Source: a phage. Taken from it: a DNA stretch of 43,655 nt. Below, in pieces: positions 6,040-34,751 of the stretch. Location of the stretch: NCBI GenBank assembly GCA_029093185.1, contig GCA_029093185.1_4348.1. One strand, written 5' to 3'. The notes beneath the pieces are model-generated. The model was not told where the DNA came from and ran no database searches. It saw only the letters and a program-made list of their open reading frames with translations. Both the position numbers and the translations under genes were made by a program. Position 1 is the stretch's first letter; the number at the start of each line of letters is the position of its first letter.

Positions 6040-6068
6040 ACTATAATAGCGAACTATTCACATGTCAA
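6040..6068 (-). promoter_or_regulatory. Sigma70-type promoter with embedded operator palindrome
   Basis: Minus strand TTGACA (rc of 6063-6068), 17 nt, TATAGT (rc of 6040-6045); contains TAATAG-CGAA-CTATTC. A degenerate second copy (TAATAT-GGTA-CTATTC) lies at 6088-6107 just upstream of the XRE gene. Confidence 0.6.
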
Positions 6069-6132: not shown

Positions 6133-6348
6133 ATGCAACCATCTGAACTAGGCATCCGTGTAGAACAACGCCGCAAAGAACTCGGCATCTCCCAGCGCCG
6201 TTTGGCGGCCCTGACCGGCGTTTCCCAGGGCGCGATTAACCAACTGGCACTTGGAGTAACTCAGGACGTCCGCCCGGCAACGCTGTTCAAACTGGCGGAA
6301 GTTCTGGAAGTAGACGCCAAGTGGCTGGCGTTAGGTGAAGGGGCTTAA
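6133..6348 (+). CDS. XRE-family (Cro/CI-like) helix-turn-helix regulator
   Basis: 71 aa; HTH signature ISQRRLAALTGVSQGAINQLALG; AAGGAG Shine-Dalgarno 9 nt upstream. Confidence 0.8.
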   Translation: MQPSELGIRVEQRRKELGISQRRLAALTGVSQGAINQLALGVTQDVRPATLFKLAEVLEVDAKWLALGEGA

Positions 6349-9522: not shown

Positions 9523-9556
9523 TTGCACACCCCAACATAATAGGTTACTATTCACT
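9523..9556 (+). promoter_or_regulatory. Early promoter (TTGCAC-17-TACTAT) with operator palindrome
   Basis: TTGCAC 9523-9528, 17-nt spacer, TACTAT 9546-9551; TAATAG-GTTA-CTATTC overlaps the -10. Confidence 0.55.
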
Positions 9557-10426: not shown

Positions 10427-10455
10427 TTGCACACTAGGATAGAATAGACTACTAT
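10427..10455 (+). promoter_or_regulatory. Internal early promoter with perfect GAATAG-N4-CTATTC palindrome
   Basis: TTGCAC 10427-10432, 17 nt, TACTAT 10450-10455; GAATAG-ACTA-CTATTC. Confidence 0.5.
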
Positions 10456-20231: not shown

Positions 20232-20258
20232 AAGGCCCCATTATGGGGCCTTAGTTTT
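20232..20258. terminator. Bidirectional rho-independent terminator
   Basis: AAGGCCCC-ATTAT-GGGGCCTT flanked by a T-run on the plus strand and an A-run upstream; sits between convergent genes. Confidence 0.6.
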
Positions 20259-20461
20259 CAACGGAATCTTGTGTTTAAATCCTGCTCATGGACAACCCTC
20301 AGAACAGTGTCATAATCCCCGTATCTTCCAGGTTCAAATATATCTAATGCCTTGTAAGCAGACATTGCGTCAGGGAAAACCTGCAGAACCTTTTTAACCC
20401 GGCACAAGTCACCGTCGAACTCTTCATCGAACTCTTGAACTACTTCGCAAATTGCATACAT
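20258..20461 (-). CDS. Small acidic antisense moron protein
   Basis: 67 aa, about 14 acidic versus 8 basic residues; strong AGGAGGTG Shine-Dalgarno; own promoter and terminator. Confidence 0.6.
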   Translation of the reverse strand: MYAICEVVQEFDEEFDGDLCRVKKVLQVFPDAMSAYKALDIFEPGRYGDYDTVLRVVHEQDLNTRFR

Positions 20462-20488
20462 TTTTCACCTCCTGTTTAAGTTAACTGA

Positions 20489-20517
20489 ATAGTACCCTAT
20501 TATATTGGGGTGTGCAA
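20489..20517 (-). promoter_or_regulatory. Early-type promoter with operator palindrome driving the antisense moron
   Basis: Minus strand TTGCAC (rc of 20512-20517), 17 nt, TACTAT (rc of 20489-20494); TAATAG-GGTA-CTATTC. Confidence 0.55.
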
Positions 20518-20569: not shown

Positions 20570-20585
20570 AACTATTCGAATAGTT
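20570..20585. promoter_or_regulatory. Perfect 16-bp palindrome AACTATTCGAATAGTT
   Basis: Same half-sites (CTATTC/GAATAG) as the recurrent operator but abutting with no spacer; adjacent to a TTGACT hexamer. Confidence 0.4.
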
Positions 20586-26223: not shown

Positions 26224-26636
26224 TGGGCTACTTTGAGGACTTAACAAAAGCGTTCGATGTTCCGCTGGTAGCCTTCGGAACCGCCAACGGCATCAAGGTT
26301 GCGCTTGAAAACATCGACGCGCCGACGTCAACCGATACGCCGTATCTGGCGAGTTACATGCTACTGGCAGATACCGAGCAGGCGGATTTGTTCTTCACTG
26401 AGCAACGCTCTGGTATTTATCAGGTAGACATTAACTACGCATCGGTGAAAGGTAGCGCGCCAATCAATAAAATGGCAGACTTACTTAACACGGCGTTTAA
26501 AGCAGGTAAGTCATTTTCGCGTAACGACATCTGCGCCGAGGTTCAATCGGTTAGCCTGGGGCCGCTGATTGTAGAAAACGGATGGGCCAAACGGCCATTG
26601 TCAATTAACTTTATAGCATTCACCAAGAGGCTGTGA
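26223..26636 (+). CDS. Putative tail terminator/completion protein
   Basis: 137 aa immediately upstream of the major tail protein. Confidence 0.4.
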   Translation: MGYFEDLTKAFDVPLVAFGTANGIKVALENIDAPTSTDTPYLASYMLLADTEQADLFFTEQRSGIYQVDINYASVKGSAPINKMADLLNTAFKAGKSFSRNDICAEVQSVSLGPLIVENGWAKRPLSINFIAFTKRL

Positions 26637-27805
26637 ATATGGCTACAACTCCTTTTAAGGGCGCGAATACCGCGCAATTCTATGTGGCGGAAGTGACCCC
26701 GGGTGTAACACCGACTAACCCGGTCTGGTCACCATTACGTAACACGGGCGGTGTTCCTGCCATTACCCGTGACACACTGACCTCCAACGAACTCGACGGC
26801 AGCCGTGAAACTACATCCATCCGCACCGGTAACAAACAGGTTAGCGGTGAATACGCAATTGAGCTTAGCTCTAAAAGCCAGGATGACTGGTTGGCAGGTG
26901 CTTTAGGCTCTACGTGGCAATCCGGTGTTTCTCTGCCAGGACTATCGATCACCGTCGCGCCCGCGGGCAAGACGTTCACACGCGCTACCGGCAGTTTTAT
27001 CACTGACGGAGTTGGGGTAGGCGACCTGATTGCGTTTACCGACTTAACAGGCGATAACGCAAAACCATTTATTGTTACCGCAGTAACGGCTACCGTTGTT
27101 ACTGGTGCAGGCATCCAACACACCCTGACCACCGAGACAAAAACTAGTAAGGCTAAAACTGGCGACACGCTGGAAACCGGTAACACATGTAAGACGTTCT
27201 CTATTCTCACCTGGTACAAAGGACAGTGCGGCGGGACTGACGCATACACACTAACCAAAGGTGTGGAAGTTTCCGGTTTCACCGTTGAGCAGGCCGTTAA
27301 CGCGATGGTTACAGGTAGCTTCCCGTTCATCGGGCGCAGCCAGGAGATTCTTACTACGCCGCCGTCTGGTTCCAACTTCTCCTCTGTCACGTTTGGTGAT
27401 GAGCCATTCTCCTCGGTTGACGTTTCTGTGTTTGACGGCTATACGCCGTTGCGTTGCGACAGCCTGACCATCACCAACGACAACAGCGCATCCGCGCAGT
27501 TCGAACTCGGCAACACTAACGTAGCGTTTGTAGAACGTAGCCGCGCGGCTAACACCTTCTCCATCTCCGGCAAGCTGTATGACATGGCGATGATTCAGAA
27601 GTTTATCAACGAGCAGCAGGTAGAGATTAACTCTATTCTGGCGGGGGTAAACGGGGCTATGTCTTTCAGTTTGAAACGTGCGGAGCTTACGGCAGTTACC
27701 CCAGAGATTGGCGGACCTGAGTCAATCACTCAGTCCATTGAAGGCCAGGCTACTGGCAACCAGTACCAGTCGTCTATTGTTATTCAGCGTATCACCTACG
27801 CATAA
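26633..27805 (+). CDS. Major tail protein
   Basis: 390 aa, Thr/Gly/Ser-rich, followed by a terminator. Confidence 0.6.
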   Translation: MNMATTPFKGANTAQFYVAEVTPGVTPTNPVWSPLRNTGGVPAITRDTLTSNELDGSRETTSIRTGNKQVSGEYAIELSSKSQDDWLAGALGSTWQSGVSLPGLSITVAPAGKTFTRATGSFITDGVGVGDLIAFTDLTGDNAKPFIVTAVTATVVTGAGIQHTLTTETKTSKAKTGDTLETGNTCKTFSILTWYKGQCGGTDAYTLTKGVEVSGFTVEQAVNAMVTGSFPFIGRSQEILTTPPSGSNFSSVTFGDEPFSSVDVSVFDGYTPLRCDSLTITNDNSASAQFELGNTNVAFVERSRAANTFSISGKLYDMAMIQKFINEQQVEINSILAGVNGAMSFSLKRAELTAVTPEIGGPESITQSIEGQATGNQYQSSIVIQRITYA

Positions 27806-27809
27806 AACT

Positions 27810-27835
27810 AAGGCCCCGAAAGGGGCCTTTTTTAT
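27810..27835. terminator. Bidirectional rho-independent terminator
   Basis: AAGGCCCC-GAAA-GGGGCCTT followed by TTTTTTATT; also terminates the convergent antisense operon. Confidence 0.65.
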
Positions 27836-28065
27836 TACTCATCAATGTTACTCCTGTACTCCCGTAACTTTTCCAGACTTTCAATTGCTTCCGCTAAGTC
27901 GGTTCCGGTGTCCTTGTGTCCACGTAAACCCATGCACAATAGCTTCTTCAATGCGTGCTGTAACGCCGGGTCGCGGATGTCGAAAGCGCGGAGCACATCA
28001 TAAACGTCTACTGTCATAGTGCTGCCGTGAGTATTTGTCATTGTGCGGTTGTATTTTGAAGTCAT
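27835..28065 (-). CDS. Hypothetical small protein (third gene of the antisense moron operon)
   Basis: 76 aa; ATGA overlap with the phosphoesterase gene. Confidence 0.55.
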   Translation of the reverse strand: MTSKYNRTMTNTHGSTMTVDVYDVLRAFDIRDPALQHALKKLLCMGLRGHKDTGTDLAEAIESLEKLREYRSNIDE

Positions 28066-29192
28066 CCCAGCATCTCCGGTGAAATAGTTAAACGTGCGAC
28101 CTCGCCATATTCGGCGCTATAAGTAATTACATTTGCACTGCGGCCTGACATCCACCCGCCGCGGGAGGCATAGGCGTCTTTAGCCGCTAAGGTGCGGTGT
28201 TGCTCAACAATCATGTTACGGCTTTCTACAATCTTCTGGTGGTGCAGGTGGCCTACGTGGGCGTAGCTATAGACACTCTCACCGAACGCTTTGCGGAATT
28301 TGGCAATCATAACCGGTTCGATAGCATCGAATCGCGCCTTATGCCCGTGGTGAAAGAACAACGTCGTTTTTCCGTGTTGCACCATCTTGTAAACATCCGG
28401 CGACGTATCGACAATCACTCGGCTGTCGTTCGAATATAAAACTGTGAACATTTCAGCCAGCCATACAGAGCCTACAGGGTCATGGTTCCCCTGTACGATA
28501 AGCAAGCGAACATTTTTATGTTTAACCAGTGCCATATCTACAACACAGCGTACCATACGAATCATGTAGCGGACGAGTTTCTGGTAGCGAGTGTCTGCGT
28601 CCAACACGTGACGCGACTCAGGTGTAACGGCATCCAGACTATCGAAGTGCGCGAAATCACCCAGCAGGTTAATAACTCCTGTTCCTGCATCCGGTGCTTT
28701 CTGAAACGCCGCGTCGAACCAACGAGAGAACAGGTCTTCCGCAATCTTTATATCCCAGTCGTCGCCGCTCTCGTCGGCCCAGGCAAGCATACCGAGATGG
28801 AAATCAGATACCGTGTAAAGATTGAGTAGCTTGTCGTCGCGTTTGGCTCGAGTCGCTTTAGCCGGCGCAACTGGCGTAATCTCTGACTTCATGCCTTCAA
28901 TCACGGCTTTCATCAACTCGACCTGACGTTCAGCGTCGGTGTCTGTCTTAACCCATTGCAACTTAGTATTGCCGAACTCGTCTACCAGAGACGACGTTCC
29001 TTTAATCTTGTAGCCGTCTGGCACAAGGTGGCTAACGTCACGCCCGTGGCCTACACCTTTCTTAGCCAGCTTCGCTTTACGGATACGAATAACTCGGTCT
29101 GAGATGCCGTATTTACGGGCGATGTCTACATTCTTCATCCCGGCGTTCAATTCTTCCTGTAACTGTTCGTCGGTTATTTTCTTCTGGGCCAT
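28062..29192 (-). CDS. HTH-fused calcineurin-like metallophosphoesterase
   Basis: 376 aa; N-terminal HTH (VDIARKYGISDRVIRIRKAKL); phosphoesterase motifs VSDFHLG (DxH), LGDFAHFD (GDxxD), VQGNHDP (GNHD), HHGH and GHLHH. Confidence 0.7.
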   Translation of the reverse strand: MAQKKITDEQLQEELNAGMKNVDIARKYGISDRVIRIRKAKLAKKGVGHGRDVSHLVPDGYKIKGTSSLVDEFGNTKLQWVKTDTDAERQVELMKAVIEGMKSEITPVAPAKATRAKRDDKLLNLYTVSDFHLGMLAWADESGDDWDIKIAEDLFSRWFDAAFQKAPDAGTGVINLLGDFAHFDSLDAVTPESRHVLDADTRYQKLVRYMIRMVRCVVDMALVKHKNVRLLIVQGNHDPVGSVWLAEMFTVLYSNDSRVIVDTSPDVYKMVQHGKTTLFFHHGHKARFDAIEPVMIAKFRKAFGESVYSYAHVGHLHHQKIVESRNMIVEQHRTLAAKDAYASRGGWMSGRSANVITYSAEYGEVARLTISPEMLG

Positions 29193-29257
29193 GCTTACTT
29201 CCTCGTGTTTAGGATTTGTCCTATTTAACCACAGTGGATTCCTTTAAATAAAGGCAA

Positions 29258-29584
29258 CTATTTACTTTCTGCGCCTATCGCCCACCCTGTCATTACCATT
29301 TGCAGACGGGTGGCTGTCAGTAGGCTATAGAAAGCATCTCCGTTTTTCTCTACCGAACGTATCACTGTGTAGGTTACGGCCTGCGGGGGTAGGCCCGATT
29401 TACCAACCTCCACGGCGGCCTCACACTCGCGAACTGTAGAGTCCTTGAACGCCTTTACAATAGTAGGGTCGGCTTTCCCGAGCACACCAGAAGTCATAAG
29501 AACAGATTCACTAAATACCTGTTCGCACGGGGCTCCAAAAGTAGCAAAAGACATAAACCCCAGAGCTAATACTAATTTACGCAT
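29258..29584 (-). CDS. Small secreted protein with cleavable signal peptide
   Basis: 108 aa; MRKLVLALGFMSFATFGAP signal-like N-terminus; two Cys in the mature part; no lipobox. Confidence 0.55.
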   Translation of the reverse strand: MRKLVLALGFMSFATFGAPCEQVFSESVLMTSGVLGKADPTIVKAFKDSTVRECEAAVEVGKSGLPPQAVTYTVIRSVEKNGDAFYSLLTATRLQMVMTGWAIGAESK

Positions 29585-29612
29585 AATTATACCCTCAGTA
29601 AGTTACTGGTGA

Positions 29613-29641
29613 ATAGTACCCTATTATATTGGGGCGCGCAA
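29613..29641 (-). promoter_or_regulatory. Early-type promoter with operator palindrome driving the antisense moron operon
   Basis: Minus strand TTGCGC (rc of 29636-29641), 17 nt, TACTAT (rc of 29613-29618); TAATAG-GGTA-CTATTC; a 24-bp identity with the promoter at 20487-20510. Confidence 0.55.
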
Positions 29642-29748
29642 GTAGTGTGTTAGAATAAGTTTGCGCCTAGTGTCGCACACGAAAAGCGGGTGGTTCCCGT
29701 CTGGCGCATTAACCATAACCAGTAACCTCTTAACCAAAGGACTAAAGA

Positions 29749-32832: not shown

Positions 32833-34232
32833 TGAGCGACTTATATTTCCCACGTAGCCTTAAGCCGGTGGTATCGAAAGGCTACTCAATGACCAGACGT
32901 AACAACGTCTGGAGTGTAGATTTAGCTGGTGGCGGTGTACGTCAGGGGCGCGACACGTATTACGACGTGTTCCCGATAAGCGTAACTCTGATTACATCGG
33001 CACTGGGACGGCAGGCGTTTCTGTCGTTCCTCGAAAAAGTAGACGGCGGTGCGTCAAGTTTCTGGATGGCGCACGACTTCGGCATGGGTATTGAAGATTA
33101 TCAGGTAACCATCACGTCCACCATCGCGGAGTCCACCGAAGACGGCATTAACTGGACGATTACTTTCACGGCAACCGCCGAGAAATCCCCGTTCCAGGAC
33201 CTCGAGAACCAGTGTCTTGTCAATAATCTGCCGGATTTGTATGGTTGCTATGGTGACGGGCTGGGGTGTTTCCTGAAAATATACGCGAACTATGAGACAA
33301 CGTTCCCGCGAATCTGGAGTAATGAAGGCCCTGCCGGATATCCGCCGATTAACCTTCTGGCGTCGACTCTTGATAGCCGCATTGTGTATGAAGGGCCGCA
33401 GGTTTATTACATCAACCGCAACGGCAATCTTGTGCAGTCCGCCACTAATGAATGGCCTCTTACGTTTATTGACGGAACTGCAGTTGGGCGTGTGCCGCCG
33501 GAAAAGGCTGCTACCAATGTGGTAGAACATTCTAACAACTTACTATCTACATCATTTTCACGTACCAGAACAACAACCACGGCGAGTTCTTTGGCGTTAT
33601 TCCAAGAAACTTATGCTGCTAAATTAACCGCAACGTCGGTATCAGGTAACCATTATATAAACAAGGCAGAGGCCCCAGAACAAGAAACAAGATACTCTAT
33701 TAGTGCTATTATAAAAGCAGATGAGTACCAGTCGGCAGCGGTAGCCATCGGCAACCGAGCCGCTTTAGATAATTTCCAGTATGCCTATGTTGACTTAGCC
33801 TCCGGCTATTTGATATCAGGCGACACCTCAAGGTCGTTCGTAAGCAATCTTGGTGGTGGGTGGTATCACGTTTCAATGTCAGCGGACACTAACGACTCCG
33901 GCGGATTGATTTATTCGCAGATAAACATGTTGTCTCCGTCTAACTCCCTCACCTTCACAGGGGATGATGTCAGTGGGTTCATTATAGCCCTAATCCAGAT
34001 GGAGCCTTCAGAGTTTGCCTCCTCCCCGATAGTGACCGAGGAGTCACCGGTAACTCGTCCAACGGCATCAGCAAAAGTGGCAATGAACGGCGCGACAAGC
34101 ATCGACATTACCTATTCCGACGGCTCTGTGGTAAACGTTCTGGCGGCAGATGATTACGCAACCATCCCGCAGGCTGATTCCGCGTGGGGTAGCAAGTACA
34201 TCACTCGTATTGATTTTAATGTGGACGGTTAA
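32832..34232 (+). CDS. Minor tail protein (distal tail/tip component)
   Basis: 466 aa directly after the tape measure gene. Confidence 0.5.
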   Translation: MSDLYFPRSLKPVVSKGYSMTRRNNVWSVDLAGGGVRQGRDTYYDVFPISVTLITSALGRQAFLSFLEKVDGGASSFWMAHDFGMGIEDYQVTITSTIAESTEDGINWTITFTATAEKSPFQDLENQCLVNNLPDLYGCYGDGLGCFLKIYANYETTFPRIWSNEGPAGYPPINLLASTLDSRIVYEGPQVYYINRNGNLVQSATNEWPLTFIDGTAVGRVPPEKAATNVVEHSNNLLSTSFSRTRTTTTASSLALFQETYAAKLTATSVSGNHYINKAEAPEQETRYSISAIIKADEYQSAAVAIGNRAALDNFQYAYVDLASGYLISGDTSRSFVSNLGGGWYHVSMSADTNDSGGLIYSQINMLSPSNSLTFTGDDVSGFIIALIQMEPSEFASSPIVTEESPVTRPTASAKVAMNGATSIDITYSDGSVVNVLAADDYATIPQADSAWGSKYITRIDFNVDG

Positions 34233-34235
34233 TTT

Positions 34236-34751
34236 ATGAGCCAGGAATCTGTAGAAGCCGCCTATCGCCGTAAGCTGGCCTCAAATCCCGACGGCGAGAT
34301 GGACTACATCACGTTGCAAATCAGCCACCCGTTGTTGTCAAAGACGTACTATCTTGTTCGTGGGCTACAGGAACTCACGGCAACACTGGAGACAGGCGAA
34401 ATTATCACGTTCGAGCCAACCCCGATGGAGGCGTCGGGGGCGGCTAACAACAGTGATATGGACCAGACGACTACGTTTACTTTACCGGATATTCTCAATC
34501 AACTTGACGATGAGATGGATAAAATCCCTATGAGTAACACCGAGTTGCCGAAGTTCGTCTTCCGTCGTTACGTCAGCACAGACCTGTCTTATCCGGCTGA
34601 CGGTCCTGTCATGTATGAGTTGCAGGCCATCAACCAGGAGAAGGGCGAGTTCTCCGCGGATGTTGGTACACCTATGCTGAACCAGCGAAGCACTGGTATA
34701 CTGATGACACCTAAAGAGATACCGTTATTACGCGGCCTGTTGACCACATGA
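34236..34751 (+). CDS. Minor tail protein
   Basis: 171-aa ORF in the tail-tip cluster. Confidence 0.45.
   Translation: MSQESVEAAYRRKLASNPDGEMDYITLQISHPLLSKTYYLVRGLQELTATLETGEIITFEPTPMEASGAANNSDMDQTTTFTLPDILNQLDDEMDKIPMSNTELPKFVFRRYVSTDLSYPADGPVMYELQAINQEKGEFSADVGTPMLNQRSTGILMTPKEIPLLRGLLTT

Follow-up and report, generated by a model that had tools for sequence, protein, structure and literature searches.

Why would a phage keep three minus-strand genes in the middle of its late tail operon, and what would the enzyme encoded by one of them do? This question is raised by a phage DNA stretch of 43,655 nucleotides (nt) (NCBI GenBank assembly GCA_029093185.1, contig GCA_029093185.1_4348.1), analysed as a whole and hereafter called the window. 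A reading made from its letters alone, without database searches (the sequence-only reading), had described a three-gene antisense operon in the tail module, coding for a secreted protein, an enzyme that joins a helix-turn-helix (HTH) to a calcineurin-like metallophosphoesterase, and a small protein. The three minus-strand open reading frames (ORFs) are indeed present, with the genes of the major tail protein and the tail chaperone on either side. They are given below from the ORF list, together with the two genes that flank this island:

26633-27805, plus strand, major tail protein (tail tube) gene
27835-28065, minus strand, gene 3, 76 amino acids (aa)
28062-29192, minus strand, gene 2, 376 aa, HTH-metallophosphoesterase
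29258-29584, minus strand, gene 1, 108 aa
29749-30165, plus strand, tail assembly chaperone gene

The favoured answer, which has about an even chance of being right as a whole, is that this locus is an early-type mosaic island controlled through a Cro-type operator, with a DNA-tethered nuclease as its core.

The island and its constant enzyme

Between positions 27600 and 29800, Escherichia phage GertrudWoker_Bas73 (PQ850603; Kagunavirus, BASEL collection) matches the window at 99.5% identity and many further Kagunavirus genomes do so at 89-99%, and DNA-level matches to this region come from 304 phage records, nearly all of Escherichia/Salmonella Guernseyvirinae. In Bas73, the island also lies on the minus strand, with the tail tube gene (there labelled 'minor tail protein') on one side and the tail assembly chaperone gene on the other, and of its three genes the middle one carries the annotation 'DNA repair exonuclease', the two others being labelled hypothetical protein. 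The genes of this island are thus already deposited and annotated publicly, the enzyme being part of a catalogued family, so that the window itself is not unusual; the paper describing the Bas73-group phages makes no mention of the locus.

Gene order, given from the promoter-proximal end, differs between close relatives:

Window and Bas73: 108 aa, enzyme, 76 aa
Jersey: 109 aa, enzyme, 76 aa, Ant
Ent3: 59-aa protein with two transmembrane (TM) segments annotated 'immunity to superinfection', enzyme, HNH, 76 aa, Ant
VIPECOTH07: 63-aa version of the Ent3 membrane protein, enzyme, HAD-type phosphatase, deoxynucleoside monophosphate (dNMP) kinase
MirsaeidiM_Esher4: 108 aa, enzyme, HAD phosphatase ('kinase-phosphatase'), 184-aa hypothetical protein in the dNMP-kinase position

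In the Guernseyvirinae, slot 1 is occupied either by an exported-type 108-aa protein or by a T4 Imm-like membrane protein, and slot 3 either by the 76-aa protein or by a HAD phosphatase and a dNMP kinase, sometimes with HNH or Ant genes in addition. The only constant member among the compared genomes is the HTH-metallophosphoesterase, and none of the Guernseyvirinae loci examined is without it. In the same line, the matching record counts (359 Salmonella and 102 Escherichia records for the tail tube protein, 373 Salmonella records for the enzyme) fit the enzyme being universal in Guernseyvirinae. Besides, some Jerseyvirus enzymes are 85% identical to that of the window whereas their tail tube proteins reach only ~68%, so the cassette moves between genera.

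These comparisons bear on the idea that the three genes would constitute one dedicated, co-inherited system composed of a regulator-enzyme, a secreted effector and a small adaptor. The common promoter and terminator, and the ATGA by which the start of gene 3 overlaps the stop of gene 2, are in keeping with this idea, but it is highly improbable since gene content already contradicts it: close relatives have replaced slot 1 and slot 3 independently of each other, Ent3 has an HNH gene between the enzyme and the 76-aa gene, and the 108-aa protein is found in 99 records as against 2,069 for the enzyme. Given the independent swapping of the two slots, the three genes of the sequence-only reading are not one system, and the exported protein is accordingly no dedicated partner of the enzyme. 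The label of moron, proposed in that reading, suits the island in part, given its predicted promoter and terminator within another module and its sporadic slots 1 and 3. It does not suit the enzyme, which is constant and whose gene has a composition typical of the genome (GC 0.507 versus 0.511; GC at third codon positions 0.56), the GC of the whole island (0.495) being typical as well. On these sequence comparisons, the locus is an accessory island of mosaic make-up, placed at a hot spot of recombination that separates the major tail protein gene from the tail chaperone gene in Guernseyvirinae.

The HTH-metallophosphoesterase family

The 376-aa protein matches phrog_704 ('DNA repair exonuclease') with an E-value of 9.9e-162, residues 3-375 aligning with positions 1-389 of the 390-position profile, while its Pfam matches stay below gathering, with 22.7 bits for Metallophos_2 (cut-off 27) and 16.9 bits for Metallophos (cut-off 21.5). 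On such profile evidence, phrog_704 is a divergent branch of the calcineurin-like metallophosphoesterase superfamily. By tblastn, the enzyme was found in 2,069 phage records, 1,961 of them at a coverage of at least 80%, with identities of 73% in Dhillonvirus, 54-86% in Jerseyvirus, ~40-46% in T1-like Drexlerviridae, ~40% in Rhodobacter and Rhizobium phages and 31-34% in Vibrio phages, one of which is N4-like. In addition, an exhaustive search of cluster representatives returned 4,544 clusters at 50% identity, mostly of 370-420 aa. This wide full-length spread makes the HTH-phosphoesterase fusion the standard architecture of the family, so that the earlier statement that it is not a standard phage module is contradicted by some 2,000 phage genomes.

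Five motifs are invariant or nearly so in sets of 33 and 83 homologues: D130-x-H132, G178-D179-x-x-H182-x-D184, G235-N236-H237-D238, H281/H282/H284 and G314-H315-x-H317. The DxH, GNHD and GHxH motifs of the sequence-only reading are therefore retained, but its GDxxD is in fact GDxxHxD (GDFAHFD in the window protein), with an Mre11-like GDxxH. In an AlphaFold model built on 83 diverse homologues (mean predicted local distance difference test score, pLDDT, of 80.8), a three-helix HTH (8-44) is followed by a beta-hairpin (61-85) and a helix, after which a poorly ordered linker leads to a core (~119-376) of beta-sandwich phosphoesterase fold which reaches the C-terminus. The predicted N-terminal HTH is borne out by the model helices and by profile matches, namely weak ones to GerE/FixJ for gene 2 and assorted precomputed HTH Pfam hits for its homologues; such a domain would imply DNA binding by the enzyme.

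In a Foldseek search of the model against the PDB, Rv0805 came out best (E 1.1e-7), with a COG0622 protein and Mre11 indistinguishable from it, all near 1e-7, so the search did not separate the metallophosphoesterase clades. More precisely, the modelled fold confirms the superfamily, disfavours protein phosphatases and slightly favours the nuclease clade (Mre11/SbcD/PolD-DP1). A C-terminal capping domain is absent from the model, only ~55 residues lying beyond motif V. By sequence, no metallophosphoesterase chain of the PDB was matched at E up to 10, either with the single sequence or with an 83-sequence profile, and NCBIfam and PADLOC searches with the enzyme gave no match. No Rad50/SbcC-like partner is found among the 81 annotated genes of Bas73 or in the neighbourhoods of 10 other loci, and the other annotated 'exonuclease' of Bas73 belongs to an unrelated PHROG. 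The profile and structure searches that the sequence-only reading had called for thus lead to phrog_704, with no clear homology to SbcD/Mre11 and no SbcC partner. In line with that reading, the catalytic residues of the central enzyme are intact and the protein has no experimentally known function.

The context of the enzyme varies from one phage group to another. In a T1-like phage, it follows genes for a helicase, a VRR-NUC nuclease and a Dam methylase and precedes the lysis genes; in Dhillonvirus, it separates the lysin from the terminase genes; in a Rhodobacter phage, it comes after the lysis genes and adjoins methylase and ThyX genes; and its neighbour in an N4-like Vibrio phage is a dATP/dGTP pyrophosphohydrolase of MazG type. 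In metagenomic lambdoid-like contigs, the enzyme gene closes a nin-type region, which contains NinB, a separate 242-aa Metallophos protein of NinI-like size and position and a Ref-like nuclease, and is followed by lysis and terminase genes. Other contigs have it after a dGTP-diphosphohydrolase-like gene, between DnaB and dNMP kinase genes, or after holin and lysozyme genes. The recurring themes among these neighbours are DNA replication, recombination and nucleotide salvage, and no defence-signalling gene directly adjoins the enzyme in the neighbourhoods examined. The sole defence-linked exception concerns contigs L010 and L011 (8565-8927), whose enzyme is 48% identical and where a gene of the Acb2/Tad1-hairpin family, an anti-CBASS/anti-Thoeris sponge fold, is located ~1.4 kb downstream, after a lysozyme gene.

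Early-type control and the proposed role of the enzyme

The signals predicted to govern the island, with a candidate regulator encoded elsewhere in the window, are the following:

27810-27829, both strands, bidirectional intrinsic terminator (8-bp stem with 6 G-C pairs, GAAA loop, T-runs on both strands)
29612-29625, no strand assigned, operator palindrome AATAG-N4-CTATT overlapping the -10 of the leftward promoter, identified by over-representation and conservation
29613-29641, minus strand, leftward sigma-70-type promoter with -35 TTGCGC (29641-29636), 17-nt spacer and -10 TACTAT (29618-29613), identified by sequence and conservation
6133-6348, plus strand, XRE/Cro-type HTH gene of 71 aa, candidate operator-binding regulator, identified by PHROG repressor matches and adjacency

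The TTGCGC-17-TACTAT promoter was not called by a consensus scanner, since its -35 fits the consensus at only three of six positions. It is nevertheless supported, as the sequence-only reading had placed it, by its recurrence in the window and its conservation in relatives. The ~30-bp element CTTGCrCrCCCCAAyATAATAGGkTACTATTCA recurs at 9525-9556 on the plus strand, ahead of the first rightward early gene, and at 20484-20515 on the minus strand, ahead of a second antisense ORF in the head module, with a related element at 10443 (plus strand). The Kagunavirus VIPECOTH07 has the same element, and the Jerseyvirus Ent3 has TTGCAT-17-TATTAT at the homologous place. The scanner's own minus-strand call, TTCACC-16-TATAAT (29613-29586), was rejected: only 2 nt separate its end from the ATG, and it overlaps the ribosome-binding site; lying over the Shine-Dalgarno sequence and start codon, it is unlikely to function as a promoter. 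Genes 1 and 2 each have a good Shine-Dalgarno sequence.

With at most one mismatch, the operator palindrome occurs at 13 sites in the window (8 exact), compared to 1.1 expected and a maximum of 5 in 100 shuffles. Three strong minus-strand promoters of the form TTGACA-17-TATAGT, on the strand of the replication genes, contain exact copies in their spacers (3152, 6045 and 42468), in agreement with the earlier claim that the island shares its operator with the replication promoters. Each of these three promoters also reads TATAAT on the opposite strand. The operator is found at the island promoter in all five Guernseyvirinae loci fetched, and in none of the Dhillonvirus and T1-like loci. At the other end, the bidirectional terminator was correctly recognised as well, as its T-runs on both strands would allow it to end both the tail tube transcript (plus strand) and the island transcript (minus strand). 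The promoter architecture and the shared operator suggest that the island would be expressed together with early and replication genes before being turned off.

The product of the 71-aa gene matches PHROG repressor families with E-values down to 7.5e-12. Its gene, which is not on the strand of the replication genes but on the other one, immediately adjoins the two operator copies at 6045 and 6089, and an identical ORF in Bas73 (34027-34242) was left unannotated. Judging from this adjacency, the 71-aa Cro-like protein probably binds the AATAG-N4-CTATT operator. The HTH of the enzyme itself was also considered as the binder and set aside, given the lack of the operator in the Dhillonvirus (73% identical enzyme) and T1-like loci and the presence of the Cro-like gene beside the operator pair.

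In the favoured model, host RNA polymerase would transcribe the island leftward from its early/replication-type promoter, the operator there being probably bound by the Cro-like repressor, up to the bidirectional terminator; both the timing of expression and the identity of the operator-binding protein are what we infer from these elements. Gene 1 would give an exported periplasmic protein, most likely acting at the envelope, for instance in superinfection exclusion. In the gene 2 product, which comes from a large family specific to phages, the N-terminal HTH would tether a binuclear metallophosphoesterase to DNA, where it would work as a metal-dependent nuclease. Its favoured role is the breakdown of host DNA to feed nucleotide salvage, preferred because the enzyme adjoins dNMP kinase and related genes, and the processing of phage replication or recombination intermediates is nearly as likely. 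Gene 3 would provide a small, translationally coupled protein, interchangeable with nucleotide-metabolism genes. That DNA is the substrate we infer from the HTH and the GDxxH motif, from a fold slightly closer to Mre11/SbcD/DP1, from the DNA-metabolism genes around the enzyme and from two analogies, with phage T5 A1 and with a mycobacteriophage enzyme. Such a model is compatible with the host-takeover part, joined with 'or anti-defence', of the sequence-only reading; the novel three-part anti-defence operon is not upheld.

Several points nevertheless weigh against the model. Literature searches found no functional study of the phrog_704 family and no transcriptomic study of Guernseyvirinae, and no sequence-level relation links the enzyme to any solved structure, to T5 A1 or to Bxb1 gp47. 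The envelope role of gene 1 would draw on its slot and its signal-like N-terminus only. In addition, the nucleotide-metabolism neighbours would suit a nucleotide substrate equally well, and PUA-Cal-HAD is a defence system whose calcineurin-like enzyme acts with a HAD phosphatase to hydrolyse deoxynucleoside triphosphates (dNTPs) (10.64898/2026.01.15.699771, preprint).

The last two points lead to the idea, widened here from the sequence-only reading, that the enzyme hydrolyses small nucleotides (cyclic nucleoside monophosphates, cyclic oligonucleotides, dNTP/dNDP pools or Np4N alarmones) as a counter-defence or pool factor, which is possible but clearly not probable. HAD phosphatase, dNMP kinase and MazG-like pyrophosphohydrolase genes are recurrent neighbours, a HAD gene adjoining the enzyme in two Kagunavirus genomes; PUA-Cal-HAD provides a precedent for a calcineurin-like enzyme acting on dNTPs with a HAD partner; and the early-type promoter and the Acb2/Tad1-hairpin gene ~1.4 kb downstream in two metagenomic relatives point the same way. 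Nevertheless, the conserved N-terminal HTH would have no obvious role on soluble nucleotides, and no PADLOC or other family match connects the enzyme to signalling systems. It is present in every Guernseyvirinae locus examined and widespread in T1-like phages, whereas anti-defence genes are typically patchy. The immune-signal degraders that surfaced in the literature search (Acb1/Apyc1, 2H phosphodiesterase) are not metallophosphoesterases, Apyc1 having a metallo-beta-lactamase fold. Finally, BASEL phenotyping, which covered restriction-modification systems and Old but not signalling systems, revealed no unusual resistance of Kagunavirus (PMC11990801). The bolder version, according to which the whole phrog_704 family would not be nucleases but DNA-tethered hydrolases of nucleotide signals or pools, a widespread counter-defence class with the HAD, dNMP-kinase and MazG proteins in the same circuit, appears rather unlikely.

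Two other proposals turn on the HTH and on the fold. A role primarily as a DNA-binding regulator, for instance of the early-to-late switch, with the phosphoesterase domain kept or used, is unlikely. It would agree with the position of the gene just upstream of or next to lysis and packaging genes in several lineages, a Q-like position after the nin-type region, with an HTH of sigma-r4/LuxR/Fis type and with a weak match to a PHROG 'late transcriptional activator' (E 9e-4). However, the metal-binding and catalytic residues are invariant family-wide, which indicates that catalysis is under selection; the operator is confined to Guernseyvirinae, its absence from the Dhillonvirus and T1-like loci making it probably not the site of the enzyme; and a separate Cro-like gene stands beside the operators. 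The least probable of all is a Ser/Thr protein phosphatase of lambda NinI type acting on host proteins. Such phosphatases are of the same superfamily and are encoded by phages, and one relative carries the 242-aa Metallophos protein in its nin-like region, but motif II is GDFAHFD and not GDxVDRG, and neither the GDxVDRG and GNHE motifs of the lambda-type PPP Ser/Thr phosphatases nor a PPP-like fold as closest neighbour was found. Besides, this very contig, L009, has both the enzyme and the separate NinI-sized gene, a co-occurrence which argues for a different job of the enzyme.

Accessory genes, neighbouring elements and known systems

The gene 1 product matches phrog_14165 (E 5e-55), has no Pfam match, and is found in its 99 records exclusively in Salmonella, Escherichia, Kagunavirus or Shigella phages. 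Its N-terminus starts with MRK, followed by a hydrophobic stretch and small residues at 15-20, this Sec-type, signal-like character being kept in three homologues, and two cysteines, C20 and C54, are invariant. These features fit a predicted exported, disulfide-bonded periplasmic protein of ~90 aa, for which a role at the envelope, such as superinfection exclusion, is the best guess, proposed because the gene alternates with that of an Imm-like membrane protein in the promoter-proximal slot. T4 Imm-type superinfection immunity proteins occupy this position in VIPECOTH07 and Ent3. In contrast to them, the gene 1 product has an unrelated sequence and appears to be a soluble exported protein, not a two-TM one, so the equivalence would be one of position only. 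Between genes 1 and 2, the 65-nt spacer (29193-29257, minus strand) ahead of the enzyme gene carries two short inverted repeats, CCTTTA-TT-TAAAGG and TAGGA-CAAA-TCCTA. The latter is kept with the ribosome-binding site in VIPECOTH07 (locus L002, 2960-3000) despite the different upstream gene, and would thereby mark the edge of the exchanged slot.

The gene 3 product, found in 774 phage records from many phage groups, aligns with the C-terminal portion of PHROG profiles longer than itself (phrog_2452, E 2e-36, among others). Its model (pLDDT 88) has a beta-hairpin and three helices and finds no fold match in the PDB; none of its 35 homologue hits has a Pfam annotation, and its own Pfam search gave no hit at E up to 1. 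Elsewhere, this 76-aa module forms the C-terminal part of 180-250-aa proteins. In Escherichia phage FritzHoffmann, it ends the 252-aa protein bas20_0033 (L019, 1916-2674) inside a 7-deazaguanine DNA-modification cluster (QueE, Gat-QueC, QueD), and a 193-aa protein of Acinetobacter phage P711 carries it at the end, behind an N-terminus that matches phrog_23238, a family with a C-terminus resembling the DUF3310 region of T7 gp1.7. A suspected likeness of gene 3 itself to DUF3310 (PF11753)/T7 gp1.7 was not borne out (hhalign probability 0.5% against gp1.7, which itself matches DUF3310 at E 4.5e-23), which leaves the indirect link through phrog_23238.

On the other side of the island promoter, two elements of the opposite strand precede the tail assembly chaperone gene, the second one having counterparts in four other Guernseyvirinae loci:

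29629-29656, plus strand, putative rightward promoter, TTGGGG, 16 nt, TGT-TAGAAT (extended -10), identified by consensus resemblance
29660-29724, plus strand, int-alpA-like structured RNA (Rfam RF02996), leader of the tail assembly chaperone gene
L002 2618-2682, L014 3300-3346, L005 2629-2673 and L013 3364-3408, minus strand, int-alpA-like element (RF02996) in relatives

The putative rightward promoter, of which TGTTAGAAT is kept in L002 and TGTTATTCT in L005, stands back to back with the leftward promoter of the island, their -35 regions almost overlapping. Its predicted start, ~29663, is the first base of the outer stem of the RNA element, and the centre of the shared operator lies ~44 bp upstream of this start; the paired promoters and operator could constitute an early-left/late-right switch. 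The RNA element scores 33.1 bits against RF02996, under the gathering score of 35.8 (E 0.0036), and its counterparts, at the same place, score 26-34 bits, also below gathering. RNAalifold recovered the outer stem and two hairpins, with 3 of 15 pairs compensatory, from five sequences of only about three types. Like the Rfam int-alpA motif, the window RNA has the outer stem, the two hairpins and the conserved CUAG and CGAAAAGCGGG linkers; unlike it, it stays sub-threshold, is devoid of the U-rich tail of the consensus, and precedes the tail chaperone gene, which is neither int nor alpA, for which the motif is named. Bas73_0025, a 30-aa ORF (window ~29624-29716, minus strand), is a probable over-call, since it spans both the conserved promoter and the strand complementary to the RNA element.

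A second antisense island is located in the head module, where a 67-aa acidic ORF (20258-20461, minus strand; Bas73_0006) stands behind the near-identical promoter and operator copy at 20484-20515, with a further one-mismatch operator at 20579.

The interest of the locus comes mainly from its enzyme, as phrog_704 is among the more widespread phage enzymes without a tested function (~2,000 sequenced phages, more than 4,500 clusters at 50% identity), its carriers including T1-like, Jersey-like, Dhillonvirus and some N4-like phages, several of them used in phage therapy work. If it were a stand-alone HTH-guided nuclease, it would be the third independent metallophosphoesterase family serving phages as an early DNA-degrading tool, besides T5 A1 and the mycobacteriophage enzyme, and could explain how small siphoviruses gain nucleotides and shut off the host. 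If it were instead a hydrolase of nucleotide signals, it would represent a widespread and unrecognised metallophosphoesterase class of counter-defence enzyme. The locus is also a clean natural case of a gene-exchange hot spot with its own predicted early promoter within a late structural operon, and hence a convenient place to insert payloads when Kagunavirus phages are engineered.

Among known systems, Mre11/SbcD, together with the proofreading exonuclease PolD DP1, is nearest by modelled fold, and only marginally so over the class III cyclic-nucleotide phosphodiesterases (CpdA, Rv0805), which share the same fold. The enzyme differs from Mre11/SbcD in that it has no sequence homology to them, no capping domain and no Rad50/SbcC-like gene annotated in Bas73, and has an HTH and beta-hairpin module instead. 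Phage T5 A1 is a phage metallophosphatase expressed first in infection (pre-early), whose own nuclease activity had no in-vitro demonstration at the time of the corresponding preprint. It differs from the enzyme by its family (phrog_1745 versus phrog_704), its 556 aa and the lack of an HTH of the same type, and the two proteins align with an hhalign probability of 21% over 23 columns, confined to the motif III stretch, and with a BLASTP E-value of 0.08. The cluster A mycobacteriophage enzymes (A10ZJ24 gp48, Bxb1 gp47) are also early and have five metallophosphoesterase motifs. Bxb1 gp47, a homologue of A10ZJ24 gp48, is required for phage DNA replication. A10ZJ24 gp48, expressed early, is reported to damage host DNA and to be needed for phage DNA replication in M. 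tuberculosis (PMC12287305). The mycobacteriophage enzyme differs by its 255 aa, its lack of an HTH and its family (phrog_221), no relation being detectable beyond motif III. Since neither analogue is detectably homologous to the phrog_704 family, the comparison is one of 'works like' and not of family membership: the enzyme of the island may act on DNA early in infection as T5 A1 and the mycobacteriophage enzyme would do, with a DNA-binding domain of its own.

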